From assembly GCA_902571865.1 (NCBI GenBank), contig CACGDO010000004.1, positions 20,260 to 84,259 on the forward strand: 64,000 nucleotides of DNA, read 5' to 3'. The DNA is from an uncultured Alphaproteobacteria bacterium. GTDB lineage: Bacteria > Pseudomonadota > Alphaproteobacteria > HIMB59 > GCA-002718135. Both the position numbers and the translations under genes were made by a program. A model generated the notes under the pieces. The model did no database searches. It was not told the DNA's origin and was given only the letters and a program-made list of their open reading frames with translations. Shown piece by piece: positions 29,503 through 46,434 of the stretch; the stretch's first letter is position 1; each line of letters opens with the position of its first letter.

Positions 29503-30546
29503 TTATTTTTCTATAATCGTTAAATGACCCATTTTTCTTTTTTGCTTAATTTCTGTTTTTAAATAATCGTAAAAAAATTCGTTATCCATAAATGGTTTAT
29601 TTCGGTACGGTGTTATCTCATCACCAATTAAATTAATCATTTTGGCATTATATAATTTTTTTGTCTCAATCTTTTCTAAACCACATACTGCTCGTACATG
29701 ATTTTCAAATTGACTAATATTATGAGAGTTCATTGTCAGATGTCCAGAATTATGAACACGAGGGGCAATTTCATTAGCATATAAATTATCATCAGTATCA
29801 ATAAAAAATTCTACACATAACGTTCCTATGTAATCTAGTTTTTCTACAACGTGTTTTGCCCACTCAATTGATTTTATTCGTATGTTATCAGAAATATCAC
29901 TTGGTATTGTTGAATATTTTAAAATTTGTTCTTCATGAACATTCTCAATAGGGTCATAGATCTCATAACTATTTTGATCATAACGAGTAATGACGACTGA
30001 GATTTCTTTTTTAAGATGAATGAGTTTTTCTAAAATGTATTCTTTTGTAAAATCAATTTCGTTCGTAATATCATCTTCAGTATGTAATTTATACTGACCT
30101 TTGCCATCGTATCCTAATGTTGTTGTTTTTAACAAACCAGGAAGCAAGTCTACATTTTCACTCAAATCCTTTTCATTTTTGATAGTTACATATTTTGTTG
30201 TTGTTATATTATTATCATTGAGAAATTTTTTTTCTGTTTCCCGGTGTTGAATGAGTCGATTAATTTCTGGTTTTGGTAAAACTTGTTTCTTTTCATTAAT
30301 CTTTTTGAGTATTGCGAAGGGAATATTTTCAAATTCATATGTAACAAGATCAACTTCATTAATAAAACTATTTATTATTGTATCATCATCATACTGACCA
30401 AAAATAAATTTAGTCGCAAAGTGTTTCCCGGGCGCATCAGGATCATCACTTAATATAACGGTTTGTATATCTATTTTTTTTGCTGCATCTGCTAGAAGAC
30501 TTCCTAATTGTCCACCACCGATAATGCCAAGTGTGGGTGTATTCAT
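29503..30546 (-). CDS. purK: N5-CAIR synthase
   Basis: GIIGGGQLG, TYEFEN, GYDGKGQ, NEIAPRVHNSGH, RKMGH. Confidence 0.95.
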   Translation of the reverse strand: MNTPTLGIIGGGQLGSLLADAAKKIDIQTVILSDDPDAPGKHFATKFIFGQYDDDTIINSFINEVDLVTYEFENIPFAILKKINEKKQVLPKPEINRLIQHRETEKKFLNDNNITTTKYVTIKNEKDLSENVDLLPGLLKTTTLGYDGKGQYKLHTEDDITNEIDFTKEYILEKLIHLKKEISVVITRYDQNSYEIYDPIENVHEEQILKYSTIPSDISDNIRIKSIEWAKHVVEKLDYIGTLCVEFFIDTDDNLYANEIAPRVHNSGHLTMNSHNISQFENHVRAVCGLEKIETKKLYNAKMINLIGDEITPYRNKPFMDNEFFYDYLKTEIKQKRKMGHLTIIEK

Positions 30547-30549
30547 GAC

Positions 30550-31041
30550 TTATGGTTTTTGTTTAACAGCTTTTGATTGTTTAGTTCGGTAATTTTTTAA
30601 ATTTTTCTTAATTTCTTTATTCGTAAGAGCAATAATGGAAGCTGCATATAAACCAGCATTCATTGCTCCATCTTCACCAATTGCAACACTACCAACAGGG
30701 ATACCTTTTGGCATTTGTACTATAGATAACAAACTATCCAGTCCCTTTAATTTACGACTTTCCACTGGTACACCGATAACAGGTATAGTTGTTAATGATG
30801 CAATCATTCCTGGTAAATGTGCAGAACCTCCTGCACCAGCAATAATGACAGAAATATTATTATCTTCAGCTGCTTTGGCAAATTTAAACATTCTCTCTGG
30901 TGTACGGTGTGCAGAAACAATTTTGGTTTCAAATTTAACTTTCAGTAATCTTAAAATTTTTTCACAATTTTTCATGGTAGCATAATCAGACTTACTTCCC
31001 ATCACAATTGCGACCTTATGTTTTGTTGATGCTGAGGTCAT
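30550..31041 (-). CDS. purE: N5-CAIR mutase
   Basis: [30 protein letters not shown]. Confidence 0.96.
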
Positions 31042-31083
31042 TTTTGTTTTATTGTATCAATTCAATGATGATTCGATACATTA

Positions 31084-32190
31084 TTACATAATGACATCGT
31101 GGACATTACTTTCGCGGGCTCCTGCTTTAGAAATAAACACAAATTTACAATTGCCCTGCATTTTCTTAATCGTTTTATGACCAGTGTAACCCATGGAAGA
31201 TCTTAAGCCACCAACAAGTTGATACGCTACATCTTCTATTTTACCTTTATATGGAACCATCCCTTCAACACCTTCTGCCACTAATTTTTTGGCATTCTTT
31301 GTTTCTTCTTGGGAGTATCGATCAAAAGAACCCTTTTGCATTGCTCCTACTGAACCCATACCTCTATAGGATTTAAATTTTTTACCTTTAATCGTTAATA
31401 ATTTTCCTGGTGATTCTTCAGTGCCAGCAAATAAAGACCCTATCATGCAAGCACTTGCACCGCCTGCTATAGCTTTTGCAATATCACCTGATGTTTTTAT
31501 TCCTCCATCTGCAATCACAGGAATTTTAAATTTATTGGCAACTTGATATGTATCCATCACAGCAGAGAGTTGAGGAATACCAACACCAGTCACAACCCTT
31601 GTTGTACAAATTGATCCTGGTCCAATACCTACTTTAATAGCATCTACACCAGCACTAATTAAATCCGATGCAGCTTTTTTTGTAGCAATATTTCCAACTA
31701 TGAGAGGTGTTTTCTTTAAAACTTTTTTTGCTTTTTCAATAAATTGTAAAGTCGTTTTCGTATGTGCATGAGCAACATCAATAAAAACTATATCAACACC
31801 AAATTTTAATAATTCTAATAGTCGTAAGTACGCATTATTTTCAACACCAATTGCAGCGCCCACCGCAATCTTTCCATTAGAATTAATTACAGCATTTTGA
31901 AATTTTTTAGCGTTAACTTTAAAGCTATGAACTTTTTTTACTTCGCTTGCTTGTTTATCAATTGGCATATTACGGTGAATAACACCTAGACCACCATGTA
32001 GTGCGAGATTGATCGCCATTTTATTCTCTGTTACGGTATCCATAGCAGCGGAGAGTATGGGAATATGTAATTTGACTTTTCCAATGGTAATCGATGTATC
32101 TACATCTTTTGGTTTGATCTCCGAATACGCTGGTGAGAGCAGAACATCATCAAAGGTAACGGAATAATTGGTATTTATTTGGTAGGCCAT
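31084..32190 (-). CDS. guaB: Inosine-5'-monophosphate dehydrogenase, CBS-less short form
   Basis: [38 protein letters not shown]; only ~368 aa from ATG 32190. Confidence 0.93.
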
Positions 32191-32263
32191 TTCCAACAAT
32201 ATTTATTTTGTTTCGATTTGTAAAATAAATAGTTCAAATAATACTTTTTGAACCCCCTACGTC

Positions 32264-32862: not shown

Positions 32863-34176
32863 ATGTCTTCAAAATCATCTATTCAAAATATTTTTAAATT
32901 ATCTATCCCTATTTTCTTTGCAAATTTAGTCATTCCTTTTGTGGCTATTGTTGATACGGGTTTAATGGGTAATCTTGATAATGCTAGTTACTTAGTTGCT
33001 ACCAGTATTGCGGCAAGTGTCTTTTCCATTCTTTTTGGGAGTTTTGGTTTTTTACGATCAGGTACGGTTGGAATGATCGCTCAAGCAGATGGATCTAAAG
33101 ATTATGAAGAAATAATAAATATTTTTTTACGTAATATTTTTTTTGTTATTATTATTTCCCTCTTATTAATTATTCTTCAAACATACATATATAAATTTTC
33201 CTTATCTATTTTTGAATTATCACAAGAAACAAGACTTTATTTTAACGATTATTTTACCTTTCGTATTTACTCCTCTTTTGGTGAGCTAACGATTTTTGTG
33301 ATCACAGGACTATTTATTGGTTTACAAAAAACAAAAACATCCAGTCTTATTGTTGGGTTTTATTCTGTTGCAAATATAATTTTAAGCTTAGTCTTTGTTT
33401 TATATTTTAATTTAAATGTTTTAGGTGTTGCCTTAGGCACACTCGTCGCTTCAACACTGACAACAATAATCTTTTTATTTTATACATTTTATGATCTAAA
33501 CATGATGACCAAATTAGAATTTAATTCAAAAAAAATTTTTAATCTTAGTAAAGTAAAAAATATTTTTAATATTAATCTTAATATATTTATCCGATCTCTT
33601 CTTCTTGCTTTTGCCTTTTTATATTTTACCTATCTTGGTAATTCTATCAGTGAAGAAACAGTAGCAGCAAATACCATTTTGCTAAATTTTATAATGTTAT
33701 CAGCCTATGTTCTTGATGCTTATGCCTTTTCTACCGAAGGTATCGTTGGATATTCTATTGGTTCAAAAAATTTAAATTTATTAAAGGATGTTGTTAAAAA
33801 TTCTTTCATCTTAAGTACGGCAACAGGTTTAATAATATGCATCATTTTTTTCTTTAGTAAAAATTATTATATTATGATGATGACAGATTTACCTGACATC
33901 CGAGAGATTAGTTTTTCTTTTTCTTATTGGGTAATCATCATTCCTTTTGCAGCGTCTTTTTGTTTTCAATTTGATGGTATTTTTGTTGGCGCATCCCAAA
34001 CCACAGAACTGCGAAATGCCATGATTGCATCTGTTGCAATATATATCGTCCTTTCTTTCTTTTTGATCTCAAGTTTTGGAAATACAGGCTTATGGTTATC
34101 TCTCTGCATTTTCTTTATAGCAAGAGCACTCACTTTGTTTGTTTATATGCCTAGAATTTATCGTCGTATTTCGTAA
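32863..34176 (+). CDS. dinF: MATE family efflux transporter (DinF-like)
   Basis: P...AN...P....VDT...G, FGFLRSGT.G, FDGIFVGA....LRNAM; about 12 TM segments. Confidence 0.85.
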   Translation: MSSKSSIQNIFKLSIPIFFANLVIPFVAIVDTGLMGNLDNASYLVATSIAASVFSILFGSFGFLRSGTVGMIAQADGSKDYEEIINIFLRNIFFVIIISLLLIILQTYIYKFSLSIFELSQETRLYFNDYFTFRIYSSFGELTIFVITGLFIGLQKTKTSSLIVGFYSVANIILSLVFVLYFNLNVLGVALGTLVASTLTTIIFLFYTFYDLNMMTKLEFNSKKIFNLSKVKNIFNINLNIFIRSLLLAFAFLYFTYLGNSISEETVAANTILLNFIMLSAYVLDAYAFSTEGIVGYSIGSKNLNLLKDVVKNSFILSTATGLIICIIFFFSKNYYIMMMTDLPDIREISFSFSYWVIIIPFAASFCFQFDGIFVGASQTTELRNAMIASVAIYIVLSFFLISSFGNTGLWLSLCIFFIARALTLFVYMPRIYRRIS

Positions 34177-34311
34177 CATCATTAAATTTTTTTGAAATTT
34201 TTATTTCTATTTGTAAAAATAAAATCACTGTAAATGAAAAATAGTAATGACCCATTTTGGGGCATTTGCTACTATAAAATTCCTTTTTTTCTGATATTTC
34301 CCTGTATTTAA

Positions 34312-34346
34312 ACAAGGTTCGGTCCCAACCCTTGTAAAAAAAGACC
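34312..34346 (+). promoter_or_regulatory. Candidate preQ1 class I-like riboswitch aptamer (H-type pseudoknot) in the tpsA1 leader
   Basis: P1 ACAAGG (34312-17) / CCTTGT (34330-35); loop starts TTC and ends with an unpaired C (34329); A7 tract 34336-42; GACC (34343-46) pairs with loop GGTC (34321-24); 16 nt to ATG 34363. Confidence 0.6.
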
Positions 34347-34362
34347 TCGTAAATATTATACT

Positions 34363-37300
34363 ATGAGAGTCTTTGTTATTATATTTTGTTGTTTTTTTTA
34401 TTCATGTCTTTTGTGGGCTGAACTACCAAGTGGTAAAACAACGATTACAGGCGATATTTCAATTAGCTCTGATACTCAAACGATGACCATCCACCAACAA
34501 TCAAACCAGGCTATTATAGAATGGAATAGTTTTAATATCGGGGAAAATAATACTGTTACCTTTCAACAACCATCAACTAGTGCCAGTGCCCTTAATAGAG
34601 TTGTCTCTGGTAATCCTACAACACTAGCCGGTGCTTTAAATGCCAATGGTAAAGTATTTGTGGTGAATGAAAACGGTGTCTACTTTACACCAAATGCAAC
34701 AATCAATGCGCATTCGTTTGCTGCCTCCACGCTGGCTTTATCCAATGATAACTTTCTTAATAATATTTTTTCTTTTAATTCTTCAAATCAATCATCCCTT
34801 CAATCAATTATTAATAAGGGATCGATCACGACATTAGATGGAGGCTTTACTGCTCTACTAGGCGGTGCGATCAATAATGAAGGGACCATTAATGCCAACC
34901 TTGGAAAACTTGGTCTTGGTGCTGGAAAAGAAATCACCTTAGATTTAAGTGGAGACAAATTTTTACAAGTAGCGGTGCCAATAGAATTGGCCACGACAAT
35001 TCTTGATGACGAAAATAACGATGTTAAAGCTCTCATTCAACATGCTGGATCTTCTAATGCTCACACTATAGATATTGATATTGGATCAGCTAAAACAGCA
35101 TTAAACAACGCCGTGTTCATTCCTGGTAATCTTGTTGCCACAACAGCTTCACAAGAAAATGGTGTTATTACTCTTGGAGGAAGTACGGCGCCTATTAATG
35201 TTTTAGGAAACATGACTGCAAAGGAAGGTCTCGTTAATATTGATGCGGGTTTAATCTCTTTTACTGGAAAGGTAGATGTATCAGGTGAAGATTCAGGTAA
35301 TGCTAACTTTGCATCGATAGGTAATATCTATCTTGATGGACCCATTGATGCATCATCAACAGTGGCACAAGGAGGTAATATTACTCTTTCGTCATCAAAT
35401 AAAATTATACAAACATCGAATAGCACTTTAGATGCCTCTGGAACAGAAGGAGGAGACATAAATATTAGTGCAAAAAATTTTGAAACATCAGGAAATCTTA
35501 TAGCTGCAGGTTTGAATGGTGTGGGAGGACGACTTGATATTGAAGCAAGCAGTAAAGCAACCATTTATACATCAAACCTTGATGCGAGTGGTACTAGTAG
35601 AGGTGGTTTAGTAAGAATTGGTGGTGCGTTTCAAGGAAGTAATTATCTAACACGGACAACAGCACAAGAAGAAACATTTATTAATCGTTGGGGAATTCTT
35701 CCAAGTATGAAAAATGCACAATTTGTTTTTATAAACAAAGGCGCTATCATTGACGTTGCTTCTAGTAATGGTGATGCAGGCACAGCAATCATTTGGAGTG
35801 ATCAAGAAACAACGATGCTGGGAAAAATTCTTGCAACAGGAACAATAGGCGGGTCAGTTGAAATATCATCAAAGGATACACTTCGTCATATTGGACTAAA
35901 TGATATTTCAATTAGTGCTGGTGGTCATTTACTTTTAGATCCTAAAAATATTACTATCGGGGATGTTGGCACCTCAAAAAATTGGACATATCAATCAATA
36001 ATAGATAGTTCTGCTAATAGTGCAGTCGACTTGACTAGTTTTAATATAAAATCTGGATGGGCAAATGGTGATCAATTTGGAACGTCCGGTGTAAGATTAA
36101 GCGGAGATGGAACAAAACTTGGTGTACTTTCACGGTATGACGATGGCTATAATGATAGTAGCAATAATTATCCAGCTCTTTATTTATTTCAGTTTAGTGA
36201 CACAAACTTTTCCAATCCAACTCTTAGAGGTATTATAGGTAAAGGTTATGATGCTTTATCAGGTACTCATCCTGGCAGTTTAGATTTTGAATTTCCATCA
36301 AATGATCCTTATCCGGTTCAGTTTGATTTAGATTATGATGGTGATCGTCTGGTATTAGGAGCACCAATACATAACGCCCCCGGTAAAGCGGGTTCTGTCT
36401 ATACTATTAAATTTGACGATACTAATTTTACTAATCCAACCATTGTTGGGCATATCTCCGAGACTCCTAATGCAGCCTACAGTCAAAATTTACAACTATT
36501 AGATTTATTTAACCAGGGATTTGGAGGTGGGATCGCTCTTAATTCTGATGGATCAAGAATGGCAGTAGCAGTGCTTGAAGGTATTCATTTAATTTCATTT
36601 AGTGATACAAATTTTACATCTCCCACAATAACAAGGGTACTCTGGGCTGAGAGTTCAAGTACACCATATTCATATAATTCTACTTTCCCCATAACGAGTA
36701 TTAATTACCATACATTAGGTAATAATATACCATATAATTTGAATTTAACCGATGATGCCACAGCTCTTTCGTTTACAGGTTCTGAAAATAATATAGTTAC
36801 TTTCTCAGATAATAATTTTTCTAATCCTTCACTTGCTCTTCAATTTAAACATGATTGCTCATCGTGTACTGGTAATAATAATATTAGCTTCGATGCCCCT
36901 GCTGGCGCAAATCGTGGCGTTCGTGCTCATGCGTTAAGTGGAGACGGACGCACTCTTTTAATATCATCTAACACAATAGATAATTATATAATTAAAGCGT
37001 ACGGTTTTAGTGATACAAGTTTTTCAAACCCAACATTAATTTCCTCATTTTATGCTTTGAATGGTGCAGATGTACAAAAAATGGCTTTAAGTTCTGATGG
37101 TTCCAACCTTGCTTTAGGATATGGAAGTGGAGGTAGTGTAGAATTATTGACGTCATCTAATTATCTTGATGGTACAGCCTATACTGAAGATCCCAGTAGT
37201 GATATTACAATTAGTGTGGATGCGCTTGAAGCTCTTCTTGATACCAATGTGAATGTGACACTTCAAGCGAACACCGATATTATAATTAACGCGCCCATTA

Positions 37301-38103
37301 CAACAACTGGCACAGGAACATTAAGTCTGCATGCTGGACGTGATGTTGATATTAATAAGTCAATTAGTACTTCTGGCAATTTAGCAATTATTGCCAGTGA
37401 TACTAGTGCTAATAATGTCGTGAGTGCGCAGCGTGATAGCGGAACCGGTGATATTTTAGCGGCCTATGAAAGTGATGGAACAACATCTATAAGTTTATCG
37501 GCAAGTGATTTAGATATAACACTTAATAACGGCAGTGGTGTGAGTAATGCCAGTATGGGGAACATTGAACTTGCTACTATTACGGCTACAACAGGAACAC
37601 TGCAATCAGCAAACTTTAGTGGTTCGGGAGCAGCTGTCAGTGATAAAGCGCACGATGGCACAACGTCAGCAACAGTTGCTACAACGGGATCTGTTTCAGG
37701 ATTAACGTTAGTTGGTAGTGACTTAGCACTTGTAAATACAGCCGCATTCACATCAGCAACTATTGGTGCAGCAAAAGATGCAACAGTGGATTATGATCTC
37801 AGTGGCTATTTAAGTAGCACGATGGATGTGACAGATACAAGTAGTACTGCTATTACCGAGAGTGTCACAGCAGCTATAACTGGGACAAGTTCGAGCAGTT
37901 CTTCAATCGAAAATAACAATGTAGAAGTGACCATTAATGATCAAACAGAAATTGTGGAAAACATGATTGGAGACATTAACAAAATTGTTCCTTTCGTATC
38001 TGTAGACGCTATAGTTGGATCAAATATGTCCCTTCAATTAGCAAGAGAAGCCAACATACAATCTGCTCCAAATACTGAAGGTTTAGGTTTTCAAAGTCTA
38101 TAA
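34363..38103 (+). CDS. Two-partner secretion exoprotein TpsA1 (filamentous haemagglutinin N-domain, beta-helix, 6 FG-GAP-like repeats, degenerate YDG domain)
   Basis: Signal peptide then LPSG; IIEWNSFNIG, ALNRV, NGKVFVVNENG, LLLDPKNITI, NVTLQANTDI, SDKAHDGTT. Confidence 0.88.
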   Translation: MRVFVIIFCCFFYSCLLWAELPSGKTTITGDISISSDTQTMTIHQQSNQAIIEWNSFNIGENNTVTFQQPSTSASALNRVVSGNPTTLAGALNANGKVFVVNENGVYFTPNATINAHSFAASTLALSNDNFLNNIFSFNSSNQSSLQSIINKGSITTLDGGFTALLGGAINNEGTINANLGKLGLGAGKEITLDLSGDKFLQVAVPIELATTILDDENNDVKALIQHAGSSNAHTIDIDIGSAKTALNNAVFIPGNLVATTASQENGVITLGGSTAPINVLGNMTAKEGLVNIDAGLISFTGKVDVSGEDSGNANFASIGNIYLDGPIDASSTVAQGGNITLSSSNKIIQTSNSTLDASGTEGGDINISAKNFETSGNLIAAGLNGVGGRLDIEASSKATIYTSNLDASGTSRGGLVRIGGAFQGSNYLTRTTAQEETFINRWGILPSMKNAQFVFINKGAIIDVASSNGDAGTAIIWSDQETTMLGKILATGTIGGSVEISSKDTLRHIGLNDISISAGGHLLLDPKNITIGDVGTSKNWTYQSIIDSSANSAVDLTSFNIKSGWANGDQFGTSGVRLSGDGTKLGVLSRYDDGYNDSSNNYPALYLFQFSDTNFSNPTLRGIIGKGYDALSGTHPGSLDFEFPSNDPYPVQFDLDYDGDRLVLGAPIHNAPGKAGSVYTIKFDDTNFTNPTIVGHISETPNAAYSQNLQLLDLFNQGFGGGIALNSDGSRMAVAVLEGIHLISFSDTNFTSPTITRVLWAESSSTPYSYNSTFPITSINYHTLGNNIPYNLNLTDDATALSFTGSENNIVTFSDNNFSNPSLALQFKHDCSSCTGNNNISFDAPAGANRGVRAHALSGDGRTLLISSNTIDNYIIKAYGFSDTSFSNPTLISSFYALNGADVQKMALSSDGSNLALGYGSGGSVELLTSSNYLDGTAYTEDPSSDITISVDALEALLDTNVNVTLQANTDIIINAPITTTGTGTLSLHAGRDVDINKSISTSGNLAIIASDTSANNVVSAQRDSGTGDILAAYESDGTTSISLSASDLDITLNNGSGVSNASMGNIELATITATTGTLQSANFSGSGAAVSDKAHDGTTSATVATTGSVSGLTLVGSDLALVNTAAFTSATIGAAKDATVDYDLSGYLSSTMDVTDTSSTAITESVTAAITGTSSSSSSIENNNVEVTINDQTEIVENMIGDINKIVPFVSVDAIVGSNMSLQLAREANIQSAPNTEGLGFQSL
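35962..37160 (+). repeat. Six FG-GAP/propeller-blade-like protein repeats inside tpsA1 (approximate limits)
   Basis: Six copies of L-x-x-D-[GA]-x-x-[LM], five of them followed by F-[SD]-D-x-[NS]-F-[ST]-[NS]-P-[TS]. Confidence 0.7.
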
Positions 38104-38109
38104 GCATTT

Positions 38110-41100
38110 ATGAAAAATGCTTTTATTTTTCTTCTTTCTTTTCTCTTTCTAGAAACACAATTCGTCTACGCTACCTCTCTTCCAAGCGGGGAAAATATTA
38201 TATCCGGGGATATTTCTATCAGTTCATCACAAAATTCCATGACAATTATACAGTCTTCCGAACAATCGATTATTGAATGGACGAGTTTTGATATTGGGGC
38301 ACAAAATAGTTTAACCTTTAATCAACCTTCTGTTAATGCAAGTGCTTTAAACAGAGTTGTCTCAGGAAATCCAACAACGCTTGCTGGTGCATTAAATGCC
38401 AATGGTAAAGTTTTTGTTGTGAATGAAAACGGTGTTTACTTTACACCCACGTCGACAATCAATGCGCATTCCTTTGCTGCATCGACACTGGCTCTTTCAA
38501 ATGATGATTTTCTCAATAATAGATTTTTATTTAAAGCAGATAATGTAAATAATATTTTTTCTTCTATTATTCATAAAGGTTCCATTACTACTTTGGATGG
38601 AGGTTTTACTGCTCTCTTCGGTGGCGCTATTAATAATGAAGGTACGATTAATGCGAACCTTGGTAAAATTGGAATAGGAGCTGGAAAAGAAATTACGTTA
38701 GACTTGAGTGGTGATAAATTTTTACAAGTAAGCGTTCCATTTAGTGAAGCGATAACGTTACTTGATCAAAATGCAGAAGAATTAAATACCATTATTAATC
38801 ATGCAGGAACATCAACGGCAAATAGAATAGATATTGATGTTGGCGCTGCTAAAAATGTTGTTCAGCGCGCTGTCAATATTCCAGGTAATCTTGTTGCAAC
38901 AACTGCCTCACAAAAAAATGGCGTCATTACCCTTGGGGGTGCAGGTGATATTGTCGTTGCAGGAAATTTAACAGCCAAAGAAAATGGTAAAATTAACGCA
39001 GAAGGTAATTTTTTATCTTTTGGTGGTAAAGTTGATGTGTCAGGTGCAAATGCAGGAACAATAAGTTTTAATAGTACAGGTGAAATATCTTTAGGAGGAA
39101 CTCTAAATGCTTCTTCCTCTACTAATGCTGGTGGTAAAATTGATATTCAATCTGATTATAAAATTATTCAAAGTCATGGCAGTGAAATTAATACATCAGG
39201 ACATACTAAGGGTGGTAATATTCTAGTATCAGCACCAAACATTATGTCTTCAGGTTCTATGTCTTCAAATGGCAGTCAACAAGGTGGTTTCATTGATATA
39301 GAGTCTGAAGGTTACATTCGTTTATTATCTACTGATATTAATGTAGTAGGTAATACCCATGGAGGGTTAGTTCGTATTGGGGGAGAATTTCAGGGTAATA
39401 ATAATTTAACAAGAACTACCCAGCAACAAGATGTTTTTATTGATAGGTGGGGTGAAAGACGATCACTTGTTAACGCAAAAACTATTTTAATATCAGATGG
39501 ATCGAATATTAATATTTCCTCTTCTAATGGCGATGCAGGTACAGCAATCATTTGGAGTGATCAAGAAACGACTATGCTTGGTAATATTGATGCAAAAGGC
39601 TTGACTGGTGGTGCTGTTGAAATTTCCTCCAAAGACACATTACGACATGTTGGATTATCAAATGTCAATATATCAGAAGGTGGCCAATTATTACTTGATC
39701 CAAAAAATATTACTGTTGGAACGGGTGTAACGTCTCAAAACTGGGTTCATAAAGGCTTAATCGGAAAGGATTATGCCGTTGTATCATCAACCAATGTCGG
39801 GGAGCCTAAACTAACTAGAGGTGGAAATTTTGGATCTGATATAGCAATCAGTGATGATTCAACTTTAATGGCTGTGGGTGCTAGAGAAGGTGGAGCGCAA
39901 AATAATACAAAAACAGGAGTGGTATATTTGTACCAATTTGATGACGGCAATTTTACTAACGCAACACTGATAGGGCGTATAGGAAAAGGATACACTGGAG
40001 GAAAAAATGTAGATAACTCATATCTTCAAAAGAATGACAAGTTTGGTCGCTCCTTATCTTTTAATAGTACCGGTACTAGATTAGCGGTTGGAGCAACTGG
40101 TGATGATGCAGCACAAAATGGTTCAGAGTCAACTGGTGCGGTTTATTTAATAACTTTTGATGATACTTCTTACTCAGGTGGAGAAATTGTTGGAAGAATA
40201 GGAGGTGGTTACACCGGCTCCAAGAATGTCAATTTGTTTAGACAGGGAGTTACTAAAAAAGGGGTAACTGTAAAATCTTATGATTTATTTGGTTCGAGTG
40301 TAGCATTAGATGGTGATGCAAATGTTCTGGCTGTTGGTCTGAGAGGTGATGATGGATTTAAGCAATATAGTAATAGTTATGACATATCTAAGGCTGGTGG
40401 AGTATTTATAATTGCTTTTGATGATACAGATTTTTCTAATGGTGAAGTTGTATCACGAATTGGTAATGGTTATCAAAATTTAAGCTCTAACAGTAATTGT
40501 GCGAAAACTAATAAGTGTGCTGCAATTGCAAATGATTTTGACACAAATAGTCATACTGATTTAACTCCAAAAAAAGATGATGAATTAGGTTCAGCGGTTT
40601 CTTTTAATCATGATGGCTCTCTTCTTGCTATTGGATCTACAGGAGATAATGGTAAAAATAATAATAAAAATAATTCGGGTTCTGTAAGATTATTTAAGTT
40701 CATGAATAGTGGAAGCATTGTTTCTGCTGCTACAGGTACGCCAACCTATATTGGTTCTATCGGACAAGATTATGATTATCTTGATACAAGTGACTCAAGT
40801 GTTCATGCAGTAACCTTGGCTAATGGAGATCGATTTGGAAACTCTGTTGCATTTGATAAAGATGCTGATCGATTAGCTGTTAGTTACTGGGATCAATCTG
40901 TATCTGGTGAAAGCAAAGTTAGAACAGGAGCTGTAAATTTATATACACTAACTGATAACCTTGCATCCGCAACCTACATTGGAACAATTGGTAATGGTTA
41001 TACTGGATCAAAAGATTTGGATCTTGGAAGTTCATTAGATAGTGGTGATAAGTTTGGTGAAGGTATAGATTTGAATGAAACAGGTAATCGCCTTGTAATG

Positions 41101-43425
41101 TCAGGAATGATGGCAGATGGAAATAATAATTCAAAATCTAATAGTGGTGAAGTTATGCTCATTAAATTTAATGATAATGACTTTACTGGTGGAAGTTTGT
41201 ACGGAAAAGTTGGTTATGGTTATGGAAGTACAGGTGGTAGTTCACTGGATATTGATCTTGATGATGATGATAGGTTTGGTCAAGGAACAGCCTTAGATAG
41301 TGATGGTAATAGAATGGCCATAGTTGCTGCTAGAGTTGATGGTGCAGGTAATAATTCATCAGATTCTGGTGCTGTCTTTTTATTTACCTTTGATGATGAC
41401 TCAGCATTTCAAAATCCAACACATGTAGGAACAATTGGAAAAGGTTACACAGGAACTTATAGTTTAGACTTAGATGATTTAACTTCTGGTGATTATATTT
41501 GGAGAACTGCCTTAGATGGTGATGGGGATAGATTAGTTTTATCACAACTTGATGCAACATCAGGCGGGGTTGATAGTGGCTCAGTGTTCACAATAAAATT
41601 TGATGATACAAATTTTACTAATCCAACACACGTAGGAACAATTGGACATAGTTATAATTCATCTAGTTATGATTTATCAATTGGTACTCTTGGTTCAGGT
41701 GATAGTTTTACTGCATTATCTTTGACTGATGATGGATCACGTCTTGCAGTTGGAGCAATGAAAGATGATGGAGCAAATGGAGGTCATAGTAATGCTGGAG
41801 CAGTTTACTTAATCACATTTGATCAAACAACAAATAGTGATGGAAACCCATCAACTGATTTTAACAACCCAACTCATGTTGGAACAATAGGAATAGATTA
41901 TGCCCCTACAAATACTTTAACAAAGAGTTTGGACTTAGGTGATAACGGAATTGATATATTAAGCAATAATGATCAATTTGGAAACTCTCTTGGTTTAACA
42001 GCAGATGGTAAGATCTTAGCGGTAAGCTCAACTAAAGATGATGGATATAACACAACAAATGATACCAATGATGATTATGGAGCAGTACACTTGTTTACTT
42101 TTAGTGACTCAAATTTCACTGGTGCCACATATGCAGCTTCCATAGGGAATAATTACACTGGAGGTAAAAATTATGATACTTCACGAATATCTGGTTGGGG
42201 GGCGGCTCAAGTTGCTGTTGATGGTGATGGTAATAGAATAGCAATAGGGGATTTTGCTGAAGATGATATTTATTTATTTGGTTTTGAAGATACTTCTCTA
42301 ACTGGTGCAAGTTTACAATTTACTATTGGTTTTGGTAAAACAGGTACGAATGAACTTGATACTTCAACAGCAACTTTAGCAGATGATGACACATTTCCAA
42401 ATTATATTGCTCTAGATGATACTGGTACCTTAATGGTTGCAGGAAGTGCTAAAGGTGATGGTGCAAGCGATGCGGGTGATAATACTGGCGATATATCTTT
42501 ATGGTCAGATACAATTATCCGAGGTAATACGTCTTATACAGATTATGCAAGTGATGATATCGTAATTAATAAAACAGAATTAGAAGAATTTCTGAATAAC
42601 GGTGTTCATGTTACTCTTCAAGCTAATACTGACATCACTATTAGCTCTGCCATTACTGTCACTGGTACAGGTACTCTTAACCTTCATGCAGGAAGAGATG
42701 TAAACATTAATAGCAATATTAACACTGCATCTAATTTAGAAATTATTGCAAGTGATTCAAATGATAATAGTGTTTCTGATAGCGATAGAGATGCGGGAGC
42801 AGGTGATGTAGTAGCTAGTTCAGCAAGTTTGACGGCTGAAGATCTCAATATACAACTTTTAGATGGAGGCACATTAACAAATGCTAGCATGGGAAGTATT
42901 GATCTTTCAACTGTTACGGCTACAACTGGATCTTTAATGTCAGCTAACTTTACAGTGTCAGGTGCTTCGGCAAATGATAAAACATATGATGGAACTACAA
43001 CGGCCACTACAAGTGGTGGCACTATATCGGGTTTAAACTTAACAGGTTCAGATCTTTCTATTAGTTCTTCTGGCAGTTTTGCAGATGCAGATGTTGGTAA
43101 TGATAAAGATGTTACAATAAATTATGAATTATCTGGTTTTACATCAAGTCCAATTACAATAAATGAAAATTCTGGAGCATTAGAAGCAATACCAACAGCA
43201 AATATTTTAGCTGGGGCTTCGACCCCACCTCTTCCAGGTGTAGCACCAGATGAAGAAAAAGAAAAAATTGTAGTAAGGGAAAAAATCAATAAAGATGTTT
43301 TCGATGATGTATCTCGAATAATTTCTTTTATCTCGGTTGATGGTGCGTCTAACGCTGCTTTAATTCAAAATGAATTCATTACGTCTTTTCCTCAGGTAGA
43401 CGCAATTAGTATCCAAAGGTTATAA
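38110..43425 (+). CDS. Two-partner secretion exoprotein TpsA2 (TPS domain, beta-helix, 12 FG-GAP-like repeats, YDG domain)
   Basis: Own signal peptide then LPSG; same TPS motifs as tpsA1; ANDKTYDGTTTAT YDG motif; paralogous C-terminal tail. Confidence 0.88.
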   Translation: MKNAFIFLLSFLFLETQFVYATSLPSGENIISGDISISSSQNSMTIIQSSEQSIIEWTSFDIGAQNSLTFNQPSVNASALNRVVSGNPTTLAGALNANGKVFVVNENGVYFTPTSTINAHSFAASTLALSNDDFLNNRFLFKADNVNNIFSSIIHKGSITTLDGGFTALFGGAINNEGTINANLGKIGIGAGKEITLDLSGDKFLQVSVPFSEAITLLDQNAEELNTIINHAGTSTANRIDIDVGAAKNVVQRAVNIPGNLVATTASQKNGVITLGGAGDIVVAGNLTAKENGKINAEGNFLSFGGKVDVSGANAGTISFNSTGEISLGGTLNASSSTNAGGKIDIQSDYKIIQSHGSEINTSGHTKGGNILVSAPNIMSSGSMSSNGSQQGGFIDIESEGYIRLLSTDINVVGNTHGGLVRIGGEFQGNNNLTRTTQQQDVFIDRWGERRSLVNAKTILISDGSNINISSSNGDAGTAIIWSDQETTMLGNIDAKGLTGGAVEISSKDTLRHVGLSNVNISEGGQLLLDPKNITVGTGVTSQNWVHKGLIGKDYAVVSSTNVGEPKLTRGGNFGSDIAISDDSTLMAVGAREGGAQNNTKTGVVYLYQFDDGNFTNATLIGRIGKGYTGGKNVDNSYLQKNDKFGRSLSFNSTGTRLAVGATGDDAAQNGSESTGAVYLITFDDTSYSGGEIVGRIGGGYTGSKNVNLFRQGVTKKGVTVKSYDLFGSSVALDGDANVLAVGLRGDDGFKQYSNSYDISKAGGVFIIAFDDTDFSNGEVVSRIGNGYQNLSSNSNCAKTNKCAAIANDFDTNSHTDLTPKKDDELGSAVSFNHDGSLLAIGSTGDNGKNNNKNNSGSVRLFKFMNSGSIVSAATGTPTYIGSIGQDYDYLDTSDSSVHAVTLANGDRFGNSVAFDKDADRLAVSYWDQSVSGESKVRTGAVNLYTLTDNLASATYIGTIGNGYTGSKDLDLGSSLDSGDKFGEGIDLNETGNRLVMSGMMADGNNNSKSNSGEVMLIKFNDNDFTGGSLYGKVGYGYGSTGGSSLDIDLDDDDRFGQGTALDSDGNRMAIVAARVDGAGNNSSDSGAVFLFTFDDDSAFQNPTHVGTIGKGYTGTYSLDLDDLTSGDYIWRTALDGDGDRLVLSQLDATSGGVDSGSVFTIKFDDTNFTNPTHVGTIGHSYNSSSYDLSIGTLGSGDSFTALSLTDDGSRLAVGAMKDDGANGGHSNAGAVYLITFDQTTNSDGNPSTDFNNPTHVGTIGIDYAPTNTLTKSLDLGDNGIDILSNNDQFGNSLGLTADGKILAVSSTKDDGYNTTNDTNDDYGAVHLFTFSDSNFTGATYAASIGNNYTGGKNYDTSRISGWGAAQVAVDGDGNRIAIGDFAEDDIYLFGFEDTSLTGASLQFTIGFGKTGTNELDTSTATLADDDTFPNYIALDDTGTLMVAGSAKGDGASDAGDNTGDISLWSDTIIRGNTSYTDYASDDIVINKTELEEFLNNGVHVTLQANTDITISSAITVTGTGTLNLHAGRDVNINSNINTASNLEIIASDSNDNSVSDSDRDAGAGDVVASSASLTAEDLNIQLLDGGTLTNASMGSIDLSTVTATTGSLMSANFTVSGASANDKTYDGTTTATTSGGTISGLNLTGSDLSISSSGSFADADVGNDKDVTINYELSGFTSSPITINENSGALEAIPTANILAGASTPPLPGVAPDEEKEKIVVREKINKDVFDDVSRIISFISVDGASNAALIQNEFITSFPQVDAISIQRL
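39721..42510 (+). repeat. Twelve FG-GAP/propeller-blade-like protein repeats inside tpsA2 (approximate limits)
   Basis: Twelve units, consensus D-x-FG-x-S-x-AL-x-x-DG-x-RLAVGA-x-x-DDG...GAVYL-x-x-F-x-D-x-x-F...G-x-IG-x-x-Y. Confidence 0.75.
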
Positions 43426-45108
43426 ATGAGATATTTTTTATCTTTTATCTTTTTTATCTCTACTTCATTTATGACATATCCTGTTTTTACTAATACTGGT
43501 AATTATATTGTTTATGAAACAGGTTTAGTTATTCCACCTGGTGCAGAAAATATTTCATTTAATTTTGTTGGTATTGAAATTGAAAATGAAATTGAAGAAA
43601 TGATTGAGCTTCGTAAAAATTTATTTAAATCAAAAATTTTTAAAACAATAACATTAAAAGATTTTTATAATTTATTGATTGCTTTAGAACAACTGTATGT
43701 TTTAAATGGATATTTTTTAACGCGTTTTATTGTTCCACCTCAAACAATTGAACAAAATACTAAGGTAAAAGCCATTGTTTTCCCTGGTAAAATTGAAACA
43801 ATTGATTACTCACAACTAGATAAACGTATTTCTAAACCAATTAAAAAATATTTTAAAAAACTTGTTGGTATTAAAGGATTAGAATATCCCGTCATTGAAA
43901 AATCGATCATTAAATCACGAGAACTACCAGGTGTTGAATTAGAAACAACAATTAAGGCAGGAGAGGAGCCTGGAACTTCTTCATTGCAATTGAACGCTGA
44001 ACATAAATTAGTAAATGGTTATTTTACTTATTCAAATGGATTATCAGAAACAGCAGGAAAAGATCAGTTTACTTCGTATGTTAGTCTTAATAGTCCATTT
44101 GGTTATGGAGAAAATATTTATGCAGCATACGTCTTAGATCCTGAAAACAGTGTTAATGTTCCAATAGATGATACTGAAATAATTAAACGAACAGATTTTC
44201 GAGAAGCATATCTTGTTGGTGGTAAACTTCCAATTTTTGCCTCAGACTTTTCCGTTTTTGGTGCTGTTAATGAATCTTATTCAGAACCTAACGGACTAGA
44301 AAAAAAGGGGGAATTCAAACAAATCAACTTTGGTCTTGAATATCAAATAAAAAATACAAGGCTTATAAAAAATAATCTTTCATTAGATTGGCAATGGATT
44401 AAAGAAAGAGAATATTCAATACTACCTAACATCACAGAAGATAACTTTTACGATGAGTACAATGCTCTAGAGTTAAAATATACAACTACTAACTTATCTT
44501 TTTTAGATTCTTTCTCGCTTAAAGGCAGCTCAGCTTTAAAGTTTGGAACTCCTATCTATACAAATAAAACATCAGATACAAAAACATTATCCCGTGTTGG
44601 TTCCACTTTAAATTTTATAAAATGGAATAGTGATATTAATTTGAATAGGCAAATATTTAGAGACTATTTATTGAACACACGTTTTGTTTTTCAAAAACTT
44701 GTTAGCGATAGAGGTTTAATTAATTCAGAACAAATAAATATAACAGGACCAGGCCAAATGTCTGGTTATGAATCAGGTAATATGTCTGGTGATCAAGGCT
44801 TCTTTCTGCGAACAGAATTGAGCAGACCTTTTTATCCTTTTTTAGAAGGAGAAGAAGATAAAAGGGAAGAGTCTATACGTATTGAGCCGTATATCCATCT
44901 TGGTGTTGGTGCTACCTACTATAAACGACCAGCCTCAGGTGAGTTTAGTCGAACAGAAGTGGCAAGTGGAGGGTACGGTGTTAAATTTAAAATTCCTCTT
45001 AATTCTAATAGTCTAGATATTAATTTCGAAGTAGCAGAAGCGGATAAAAGTGTTGAGGGAACTACTTCCAGACCGGTGTATTTACTCAATGCCACATTTT
45101 CATTCTAA
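43426..45108 (+). CDS. TpsB outer-membrane transporter (ShlB/FhaC/HecB family)
   Basis: POTRA motifs (LY...GYFLTR..VPPQ, LPGV), N.G....G, LNSPFGYGE, degenerate VRGY loop (MSGYESG...GDQG), terminal aromatic FSF. Confidence 0.85.
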   Translation: MRYFLSFIFFISTSFMTYPVFTNTGNYIVYETGLVIPPGAENISFNFVGIEIENEIEEMIELRKNLFKSKIFKTITLKDFYNLLIALEQLYVLNGYFLTRFIVPPQTIEQNTKVKAIVFPGKIETIDYSQLDKRISKPIKKYFKKLVGIKGLEYPVIEKSIIKSRELPGVELETTIKAGEEPGTSSLQLNAEHKLVNGYFTYSNGLSETAGKDQFTSYVSLNSPFGYGENIYAAYVLDPENSVNVPIDDTEIIKRTDFREAYLVGGKLPIFASDFSVFGAVNESYSEPNGLEKKGEFKQINFGLEYQIKNTRLIKNNLSLDWQWIKEREYSILPNITEDNFYDEYNALELKYTTTNLSFLDSFSLKGSSALKFGTPIYTNKTSDTKTLSRVGSTLNFIKWNSDINLNRQIFRDYLLNTRFVFQKLVSDRGLINSEQINITGPGQMSGYESGNMSGDQGFFLRTELSRPFYPFLEGEEDKREESIRIEPYIHLGVGATYYKRPASGEFSRTEVASGGYGVKFKIPLNSNSLDINFEVAEADKSVEGTTSRPVYLLNATFSF

Positions 45109-45114
45109 AAATTT

Positions 45115-46434
45115 ATGATAAACACATCTCATATAATGAAAATTTTTACGATAATTATCCTCAAGATCATATTTTTTTACTCAACCTTTGTGAATGCAGA
45201 AGTAAAAATTGCAGCCCTTTACGCAGAAAGTGGTCCTGTTAGTGAAATTGCTGAAGCAATTGCAGAAGCAAAAAGAGTTGCTGTAGAAACAATTAATGCG
45301 GACGGTATTGGTATAGTAGGAAGAGGTCTTATATCAATTGATACTATTGATACAGGATGTGATCCTACAAAAACAGAAGATAGTTTAAATGCCTATTTAA
45401 AAAATAATGATCCAGAAATCCTTTTAGGACCAACGTGTTCAACAAGTGCTGTTAAAGTTATTGAACAGGCAACTATTCCAGACAATATTTTAACGATTTC
45501 TTCTTCTGCTAGTTACCCGTTACTTTCAACAATTGAAGATAATGATTTATTTTTTAGAACTATTCCTTCTGATATTCAACAATCAACATCCATTGCTAAT
45601 TATCTACTATCTAAAAACATAAGAGAAATAATTCTTCTCTACGGTGATGATAATTATAATTCTACACTGGCTCAAAATTTTTTAAAAGTTTTCACCGAAC
45701 AAGAAGGTATAGTGTTATTTAATACTTTGCTAACAGATAAAACACTGATCAATCAAAACTTCATTAATACATTTGTTGATATTGCTATAGACAATAATCA
45801 ACCTGGTTTAGTCATGTTTCTTCACGGAAATGAACGAACAGTTAATTTACTAGAACAATTTGTAAATACTGTTTTGACTAGATTACAAGAACTAGAAACT
45901 TCAGGTATTTTTAAACATCATTATGGTTCTGATAGTATGCTGACGAATGACGTTAAGGATTTAATCTATTCCTATATTCCTATTCAGTTAAATAAAAATA
46001 CAACTATTGTTGCCCAAGCAACTTCACAAAGTTCAGAAGAGTTTCAAACATACGCAAATATAATGTTGAACGCAGGTGTTGATCCAAATTCTCCTTATTC
46101 CGCTATTAGTTTTGATACAATGATGTTAGCAGCTTTGGCAATACAGCATCAGACACATAATAATATTTCTAAGAAAGACTTATCAAAAAGTTTAGTTAGT
46201 GTTGCTAACCCACCAGGAATTAAAATGGGACCTGGAAGTTGGGAAGCTGCTAGAGCTTTACTTCTCCGCGGTGTTGAAATTAATTATGAGGGTGTTTCTG
46301 GATCACTAGATTTTGATATTAACGGTGATGTGGAGGGCATGTATTCTTTAAACCAAGTCACGGAAGATAATCTTTGGTCAGTTGAGCGTTTAGAAAAACT
46401 TCACCCTTTTGAGCCTAGAATTATAATTGATTAA
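45115..46434 (+). CDS. Type 1 periplasmic (branched-chain amino acid-like) ABC substrate-binding protein, orphan
   Basis: Signal peptide, VKIAAL....GP, DTGCDP, GPTCS, FFRTIPSD..Q, INYEGVSG..DFD.NGDV. Confidence 0.8.
   Translation: MINTSHIMKIFTIIILKIIFFYSTFVNAEVKIAALYAESGPVSEIAEAIAEAKRVAVETINADGIGIVGRGLISIDTIDTGCDPTKTEDSLNAYLKNNDPEILLGPTCSTSAVKVIEQATIPDNILTISSSASYPLLSTIEDNDLFFRTIPSDIQQSTSIANYLLSKNIREIILLYGDDNYNSTLAQNFLKVFTEQEGIVLFNTLLTDKTLINQNFINTFVDIAIDNNQPGLVMFLHGNERTVNLLEQFVNTVLTRLQELETSGIFKHHYGSDSMLTNDVKDLIYSYIPIQLNKNTTIVAQATSQSSEEFQTYANIMLNAGVDPNSPYSAISFDTMMLAALAIQHQTHNNISKKDLSKSLVSVANPPGIKMGPGSWEAARALLLRGVEINYEGVSGSLDFDINGDVEGMYSLNQVTEDNLWSVERLEKLHPFEPRIIID

Follow-up and report, generated by a model that had tools for sequence, protein, structure and literature searches.

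We analysed a stretch of 64,000 nucleotides (nt) from an uncultured Alphaproteobacteria bacterium (assembly GCA_902571865.1, contig CACGDO010000004.1, positions 20,260 to 84,259 of the forward strand), hereafter the window, and concentrated on a 35-base RNA motif at 34312-34346 of its + strand, which stands ahead of the genes of a two-partner secretion (TPS) system. The motif reads ACAAGG-UUC-GGUC-CCAAC-CCUUGU-AAAAAAA-GACC. An initial annotation had placed a preQ1-I-like riboswitch pseudoknot here, at the head of an adhesin secretion operon, and its sequence and position were found to be base-exact, the ATG of tpsA1 lying at 34363, 16 nt 3' of the motif. The 16-nt spacer UCGUAAAUAUUAUACU between the motif and this ATG contained no purine-rich Shine-Dalgarno (SD) sequence. 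The parts of the motif (helices P1 and P2, loops L1 to L3) and the genes behind it, with protein lengths in amino acids (aa), are as follows:

34312-34317, + strand: P1 5' strand, ACAAGG, which pairs with 34330-34335; its outer pairs covary across the family
34318-34320, + strand: L1, UUC, the first U of which equates to U6 of preQ1-I
34321-34324, + strand: P2 5' strand, GGUC
34325-34329, + strand: L2, CCAAC, with C34329 at the site of the preQ1-I specificity cytosine
34330-34335, + strand: P1 3' strand, CCUUGU
34336-34342, + strand: L3, seven A residues
34343-34346, + strand: P2 3' strand, GACC, common to P2 and a competing helix
34340-34374, + strand: predicted start-codon-sequestering hairpin, from the minimum-free-energy fold
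34363-38103, + strand: tpsA1, 1246 aa, with the Pfam TPS domain (94.4 bits) and the NCBIfam filamentous hemagglutinin N-terminal domain
38110-43425, + strand: tpsA2, 1771 aa, with TPS (80.6 bits), FG-GAP and YDG domains
43426-45108, + strand: tpsB, 560 aa, with ShlB/FhaC (64.7 bits) and POTRA_2 (24.9 bits)
45115-46434, + strand: periplasmic binding protein, 439 aa, the last gene of the same-strand run

Both TpsA proteins also matched TIGR01901. The run thus holds both partners of a two-partner secretion (type Vb) system, TpsA with its TPS domain and an ShlB/FhaC-type TpsB with POTRA, and the periplasmic binding protein was assigned to the operon on the strength of the 6-nt intergenic gaps. The motif does head a TPS operon, as had been claimed, and related copies precede other adhesin-type genes, as described below.

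Both strands of the whole genome (1.63 Mb, 29% G+C, 92% complete) were scanned with a descriptor of the pseudoknot. Its conditions were a P1 of 5 bp closed by G-C, U as the first base of L1, a P2 of 4 bp including two or more G-C pairs, C as the last base of L2, and an A-rich L3 that has 7-9 nt and finishes on A. The descriptor matched twice, at the window copy and at a paralogous copy (G000:C1:117387), whereas none of 10 random genomes of equal size, generated by a first-order Markov model, contained a match. With Rfam 15, no match at the gathering level was obtained over the whole window. The best permissive match on 301 nt was the PreQ1 model RF00522, with 17.6 bits and an E value of 0.28 over model positions 6-35 only, and RF00522 was also the best Rfam match of a SUP05-type copy, at 15.2 bits. 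Within its own genome, the window copy ranked third of 35 sub-threshold RF00522 matches (E <= 10), the top one of which (22.6 bits) lies, by eye, apparently in coding sequence, and when 12 relatives were searched together (23 kb), no RF00522 match was returned at E <= 10. On Rfam score alone, the window motif is indistinguishable from noise, and a chance resemblance in an A+T-rich intergenic region would produce a score of this kind. Nevertheless, we consider the probability of such a coincidence to be practically nil, given the descriptor counts and the conservation and covariation reported below. The RF00522 search that the initial annotation had proposed argued against catalogued membership in preQ1-I, as 17.6 and 15.2 bits stand against the 39 bits of the gathering score. 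No other Rfam 15 family came near the motif, and no published description of it was found in a search that left aside literature supplements, which could list motifs. The motif is therefore a copy of a family absent from Rfam 15 and from the literature that we found.

The second copy in the genome (G000:C1:117382-117825, L059) stands ahead of a 130-aa protein, probably a four-helix membrane protein. A search of relatives by BLAST and by pattern found the element in many genomes of the genus, ahead of the same two gene families. Alignment A1 and covariance model R1, built from 43 unique copies, yielded 69 places at E <= 1e-4 in 116 genomes of the family to which the organism belongs; these include divergent copies, and all are in the genus of the window. 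Exact patterns collected 97 stretches from species-representative genomes and 96 from metagenome contigs; the counts given below refer to 80 listed stretches of the former and to 80 listed stretches, 77 of them parsed, of the latter. The genome records comprised SAR116, Candidatus Puniceispirillum and Puniceispirillales, Candidatus Thioglobus, Piscirickettsiaceae, and other gammaproteobacterial single amplified genomes, together with single-cell genomes labelled "uncultured Alphaproteobacteria bacterium" and several alphaproteobacterial metagenome-assembled genomes, and the metagenome contig names that state a source were marine or TARA. With model R2, built from 89 unique cores, 11 of the 121 genomes sampled from the Thioglobus-type family and 15 of 121 from the SAR116-type order proved to carry the motif. 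A collection of viral contigs contained no exact match to the core (GGUCGGUC ... CCC ... A run).

The family members measure 34-38 nt, with a 5-bp P1 ending AGG/CCU and a 4-bp P2 of GGUC with GGCC or GACC, and their broad consensus is NNAGG-UC-GGUC-AC(U)AGC-CCUN'N'-(U)A7-9-GGCC. The genus of the window carries a derived form, with UU(C) as L1 and AAAAC, CAAAC or CCAAC as L2. Several matches were set aside, namely L040, L056, L065, L095 and L101-L107, which are chance, coding-region matches of the first pattern; L176 and L208, which have no P2 3' strand; and L156, L157, L159 and L160, which are weak model matches. A separate 22-nt match to R1 (G000:C7:48822-48843) recurred with a constant 23.3-23.7 bits at one place in dozens of genus genomes and is probably a conserved coding segment.

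Next, the pairing was analysed in alignment A4, which holds 89 unique cores with P1 and P2 as a pseudoknot. In this alignment, 84.6% of the cells paired, and the covariation score was 0.192, compared with 0.102 ± 0.008 in shuffled alignments, none of 500 of which reached the observed value, and with at most 0.06 for slid partners. The covariance-model alignments A2 and A5 misgapped the A run and the 3-nt L1, and the P2 counts were taken instead from a separate parse, which also gave the other pair counts. It covered 93 unique cores, and 4 of the 97 unique rows, all with a 3-nt L1, were left unparsed and dropped. P1 covaried richly, as the covariation check put forward in the initial annotation required. 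Its pairs 1 and 2 were G-C, the floor pair being G-C in 90 of the 93 cores, and pair 3 was A-U in 83, U-A in 8, and G-U in 2. Pair 4 was canonical in 82 cores with five types (U-A 36, G-C 33, A-U 8, C-G 4, U-G 1) and pair 5 in 72 with six types (A-U 38, U-A 12, C-G 8, U-G 8, G-C 4, G-U 2), and the sixth position paired in just 33. P2 was nearly invariant, and its four pairs were canonical in 91, 91, 90, and 93 cores; two compensatory variants were found, GUUC/GAAC (L039) and GAUC/GGUC (L151). The 3' strand of P2, whose bases belonged to no search pattern, was GGCC in 70 cores, GACC in 11, GGCU in 4, GAUC in 2, and GGUC in 2. An alternative P1 (GGUU/AACC) was rejected: the position that follows GGU takes any of the four bases, and covariation is seen at the outer, preQ1-like pairs.

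The loops were almost invariant. L1 was UC in 72 cores, UU in 20, and UA in 1, its first U and the floor G being fixed by the search patterns and the parsing expression. L2 ended in C in 92 of 93 cores, although the collection patterns fixed this C; the same base was found in 64 of 65 genus leaders retrieved by covariance model. Directly 5' of this C, the window copy and its genus have A, whereas most other members have G (ACUAGC, ACCAGC, GCUAGC, ACAGC). L3 had 7-10 residues, nearly all A, in every one of the 93 cores, and in all parsed cores L1 started with U and L3 ended with A. The covariation of P1, the complementarity of P2, and the A-rich L3 thus bear out the H-type pseudoknot of preQ1-I architecture that had been proposed for this site, and the motif is a real, evolutionarily conserved pseudoknot.

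We then classified the genes downstream. In the 80 listed genome records, the next gene belonged to a membrane-protein family of about 130 aa in 49, encoded TpsA in 11, and fell into a 110-117-aa class in 4 and a 75-93-aa class in 3; a 41-42-aa peptide followed in 2 and other genes in 5, no open reading frame (ORF) was found in 4, and 2 were chance matches. The 77 parsed metagenome leaders preceded the same membrane-protein family in 36 cases, three small classes in 7, 7, and 6, other genes in 18, and no ORF in 3. Proteins of the 110-117-aa class are secreted. Other downstream genes encoded MlaA, an OmpA-family lipoprotein, ABC exporters of type I secretion that carry a C39-like domain, and two autotransporters (L311:1026-6926 and L269:198-2762), both on marine, gammaproteobacterial-type metagenome contigs; one of these autotransporters, 1967 aa long, contains a CopC-like stretch and nine Big_5 Ig-like repeats. 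The adhesin link is therefore no one-off, as the element stands ahead of adhesin-type genes of type Vb (in the window), type Va, and type I secretion. In some SAR116-type copies (L375, L384, L388), the first long ORF encodes a ParA/MinD-like ATPase about 96 nt downstream, and a short ORF may lie between it and the pseudoknot.

The membrane-protein family of about 130 aa is abundant in metagenomes, with 691 matches in 90% clusters and 111 representatives at 50% identity, and it corresponded to no family in Pfam, NCBIfam, or the protein atlas. DUF4345 was reported on 30% of one cluster of these proteins with a score of 0.90, which we treat as a lead only, and a profile of the family against PDB sequences gave a chance match only (E = 1.2). 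An 85-aa protein likewise retrieved nothing from the protein atlas.

The initial annotation had seen neither an SD nor a terminator, and hence no expression platform. The first part stood: the window copy has neither, a simple scan gave no terminator-like site on the + strand, and the platform of preQ1-I, an SD in the P2 3' strand or a terminator, is accordingly absent here. The second part did not, since a helix enclosing the AUG competes with P2. In the predicted fold, AAAGACCUCGUA (34340-34351) pairs with UAUGAG (34362-34367) and GUCUUU (34369-34374), with A34368 bulged, and the AUG at 34363-34365 lies inside the stem of the 34340-34374 hairpin. The minimum-free-energy fold of 34290-34380 has -17.2 kcal/mol (z = -2.52) and retains the P1 hairpin, and the anti-start hairpin alone has -10.8 kcal/mol; this helix and P2 compete for GACC. 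Equivalent anti-start hairpins were predicted in all tpsA-linked relatives, with 12 bp and -9 to -13 kcal/mol. In other leaders, the partners differ: ACCAUAA pairs with UUAUGGU ahead of the membrane-protein gene in the genus; GGCCUUUAU pairs with AUAGAGGC in leaders of the 75-93-aa genes, burying the SD; the A run and GGCC pair with GAGG and a U run in some membrane-protein leaders; and GCCAUUA pairs with UAAUGG in SUP05-type leaders, at the start of a 7-codon upstream ORF (MDF...). In 8 of 8 SUP05-type leaders of this kind, the stop codon of this upstream ORF and the main AUG overlap in the sequence AUGA, which suggests translational coupling. Between the pseudoknot and the membrane-protein gene (e.g., L215, L192, L206, L265, L313), the variants MDFAISK and MDFTNFK were observed, and once a UUG start. 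Moreover, the competing helix covaries: position 2 of the P2 3' strand and position 2 of codon 2 pair in 43 of 46 unique genus membrane-protein leaders (A-U 36, G-C 5, G-U 2, mismatch 3).

These results bear on the alternative, raised in the initial annotation, that a riboswitch was orphaned when the TPS cassette replaced its original gene, in which case the copy at this locus would now be functionless and decaying. The window copy is the lowest-scoring clear member, with 38.9 bits for R2 and 44.3 bits for R1, and two tpsA loci (L016 in G017:C2 and L017 in G028:C7) hold only a degenerate remnant in which GGUC and AAAAGGC are kept and P1 is lost, which may reflect loss of regulation in some species. 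However, a tpsA-linked copy was kept in at least 11 of the 80 listed genome records, and its P1 is intact yet varying, with C-G, U-G, and U-A at pair 5. In addition, the bases after P2 are complementary specifically to the tpsA start region AUGAGAGUCUUU and not to the start of the other gene family. Both the retention of these copies and the match of the sequence behind P2 to the tpsA start speak against an orphan, and we regard it as highly improbable.

The queuosine link expected of a preQ1 aptamer in the initial annotation found no support in the downstream genes. None of the 150 leaders with a called ORF precedes a queuosine gene, none was found among 13 representatives scanned with Pfam, and none was seen behind 29 further, unclassified leaders. 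In the window genome, rpmB, yhhQ (Vut_1), and tgt lie in a row (G000:C6:98072-100295), with yhhQ starting 9 nt after rpmB, and this yhhQ-tgt pair has no such pseudoknot leader. QueF had no match in this 92% complete genome, and QueC had none that was convincing, the scores being 23.5 and 19.4 bits over N-terminal stretches of frames of 373 and 524 aa. Since tgt and yhhQ are present while QueF and a convincing QueC were not found, the organism probably salvages a queuosine precursor. Among five motif-bearing genomes the pathway varies, with QueF in 3 and a clear QueC in 2. The purine genes on the minus strand at window 29503-32199 (a purK-like ATP-grasp gene, purE AIR carboxylase, and a gene of the IMPDH/GMP-reductase family) showed no link to the pseudoknot.

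Class I preQ1 aptamers recognise their ligand through U6, A30, the specificity cytosine, and the floor pair G5-C (PMC11625349; PMC10622847). The window copy and the family hold this pocket layout, with the G-C floor, the U first in L1, the C before the P1 3' strand, and the A last in L3, and these conserved positions make a guanine-like base a reasonable guess; a guanine-like ligand is possible by analogy. The pseudoknot might then be a true class I preQ1/preQ0 switch, in effect a fourth type, tying envelope and surface genes to the supply of queuosine precursor. In both lineages tested, no Rfam model matched better than RF00522; the recognition positions that PMC11625349 gives for class I are all present; the AAGG at the 3' tail of the broad consensus resembles type III (PMC10622847); and the probable dependence of the window organism on a salvaged precursor would agree with such a role. 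Conversely, the scores are far under the gathering score and the 12 relatives gave none at E <= 10; in the broad consensus, G rather than U or A usually precedes the specificity C; and the carriers differ in their queuosine pathway. No queuosine gene lies downstream, and yhhQ lacks such a leader here, so the genes involved speak against preQ1 acting as a signal of the queuosine pathway. Furthermore, the ON logic proposed below is opposite to the gene-off regulation that PMC11625349, in its accessible part, describes for preQ1 switches. Altogether, we regard a preQ1/preQ0 switch as unlikely. Cyclic di-GMP was considered owing to the adhesin regulon, and it is unlikely to be the ligand, as the GGDEF domain (PF00990) was found in none of the five motif-bearing genomes, of which only the window genome has a stated completeness (92%), compared with 8 of 14 reference genomes used as a control.

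We also weighed a structured leader that would adjust how envelope genes are translated independently of any ligand: it might bind a conserved protein or a small RNA, stabilise the 5' end of the transcript, or respond as a fold to temperature or ions. Across the gene classes, P2 and the unpaired L2 (ACUAGC) hardly vary, which would fit recognition by a macromolecule, and the regulon consists of envelope and surface proteins with no metabolic theme. Of 156 unique sequences upstream of the motif, 56 have a TANNNT hexamer whose end is exactly 8 nt from AGG, and the share with such an end 5-10 nt before AGG is 61%, compared with 17-49% in other such intervals. This spacing would put the motif at the very 5' end of many transcripts, where known 5' stabilisers sit. 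However, the upstream sequences are mutually related, which weakens the hexamer count; a stabiliser requires a mere hairpin and not a pseudoknot with a conserved pocket; platforms that change from gene to gene around a constant aptamer are the usual signature of a riboswitch; and no candidate partner was found. We therefore regard a ligand-independent leader as conceivable but rather doubtful.

For the window copy, the -10-like TANNNT hexamers end 34 and 39 nt upstream, and the motif would consequently sit inside the leader. The simple scan reported 6 promoter-like sites, compared with 4.3 ± 2.1 expected, and was uninformative. A MatE efflux gene on the same strand ends at 34176; between it and the motif, at 34243-34297, there is a small hairpin (CCCAUUUUGGGG) followed by a U-rich stretch, with a weak suhB/mmgR-like Rfam match (15.5 bits), which may be the terminator of the MatE gene. 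Twenty seawater metatranscriptome runs contain small shares of the window stretch, and the assembled contigs from four of these runs, of 151-199 nt, covered the upstream gene (33955-34032) and the tpsA coding sequence (34396-34905) only.

The reading that we prefer, to which we assign a probability of about 0.5, is that the motif is a copy of an undescribed, widespread riboswitch-like cis-regulatory RNA of marine Proteobacteria that senses some ligand. The analysis establishes the conserved motif, covarying P1 pairs, a P2 whose strands are complementary and show compensatory variants, a competing helix that recurs among leaders, and the diversity of genes downstream. Beyond these, we infer that the motif binds a small molecule, that it acts in the ON direction, and that transcription starts upstream of it. 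The pseudoknot would be a riboswitch acting on translation initiation, in which the 3' strand of P2 and its neighbours could pair with either the P2 5' strand or the downstream ribosome-binding region, that is, the start codon here and in other SD-less leaders and the SD elsewhere. When the pseudoknot is not formed, AAAGACCUCGUA would pair with UAUGAGAGUCUUU and the tpsA1 start codon would be buried; once stabilised by its ligand, the pseudoknot would take GACC and the last A residues out of this helix, leaving the AUG free and the TPS operon ON. A narrower formulation is held tentatively, at somewhat short of an even chance: a new riboswitch class with a preQ1-I-like pocket, through which, in abundant marine bacteria where no cyclic di-GMP cyclase gene was found, a small, probably guanine-like molecule would turn on adhesins of the two-partner, autotransporter, and type I routes, outer-membrane lipoproteins, and the membrane protein of about 130 aa by start-codon release on SD-less mRNAs.

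Several points weigh against this riboswitch reading. The patterns behind the two big collections fix AGGU, GGUC, CCCU, and the A run, so conservation there is by construction, and variants of these are visible solely to the model-based searches (R1, R2). P2 and the loops are almost invariant, P2 resting on the two compensatory variants plus complementarity, and recognition by a protein or another RNA would fit this invariance as well. About half of the genus membrane-protein copies mismatch at P1 pairs 4-5 (U-U, A-G), and a register shift by one base (AUAGG with CUUGU, two G-U pairs) would restore five pairs there. The competing helices are thermodynamic predictions, and the 110-117-aa class has its AUG 5-6 nt after GGCC with no competing helix; in that class, AAGG may serve as the SD, giving OFF logic. 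Lastly, no metabolic gene in the regulon points to a ligand, and no metatranscriptome contig from 4 seawater runs covers the motif.

A review of preQ1 riboswitches names riboswitches on SD-less mRNAs as an open challenge (PMC11625349, section 11, in the accessible text). If the riboswitch reading holds, the family would supply natural SD-less examples, with a predicted start-codon-sequestering platform and, in SUP05-type leaders, a coupled 7-codon upstream ORF. One RNA element would tie together adhesins of three secretion routes in free-living marine lineages in which no cyclic di-GMP cyclase gene was found, and the adhesin link would point to some cue for surface attachment or envelope remodelling. 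The motif would also offer the first functional handle on the metagenome-abundant membrane-protein family of about 130 aa, which has no Pfam or NCBIfam model. Should the ligand be preQ1 after all, the family would provide the first example of a preQ1 switch that controls genes other than those for queuosine, and the first that works in the ON direction.

Among known small riboswitches, SAM-II/SAM-V, guanidine-III, and fluoride resemble the present motif in being small pseudoknots near the start codon in marine and other Proteobacteria, SAM-V having been found in Pelagibacter leaders (PMC2704228, accessible part). Their gene contexts are unrelated to those found here, and their Rfam models gave no match at E <= 10 on the window or the SUP05-type copy. 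The accessible part of that Pelagibacter structured-RNA paper lists autotransporter intergenic regions and describes no such motif (PMC2704228). Closer is preQ1-I (RF00522, types I-III, with the B. subtilis queC, T. tengcongensis, and E. coli yhhQ leaders), which is likewise an H-type pseudoknot of about 34 nt. In both, a G-C pair with its G on the 5' side closes P1, L1 begins with U, a cytosine directly precedes the 3' strand of P1, and L3 is rich in A and has A as its last base, beside P2; type III shares the AAGG-like 3' tail of the broad consensus, and translation initiation is addressed via the P2 3' strand, as predicted for the present motif. In contrast, the motif fails the curated model (15-18 bits, compared with 39), and its P2, GGUC with GGCC or GACC, has four pairs, canonical or G-U wobble, of which the one beside the pocket is C-G. 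Its L2 is ACUAGC, so that G precedes the specificity C in most members, whereas the specificity cytosine of preQ1-I is preceded by U in type I or A in types II and III (PMC11625349; PMC10622847, accessible parts). Finally, the present regulon comprises adhesins and envelope proteins instead of queuosine genes, and the 3' strand of P2 is complementary to the start region or the SD rather than being the SD itself, which predicts ON, not OFF, control.

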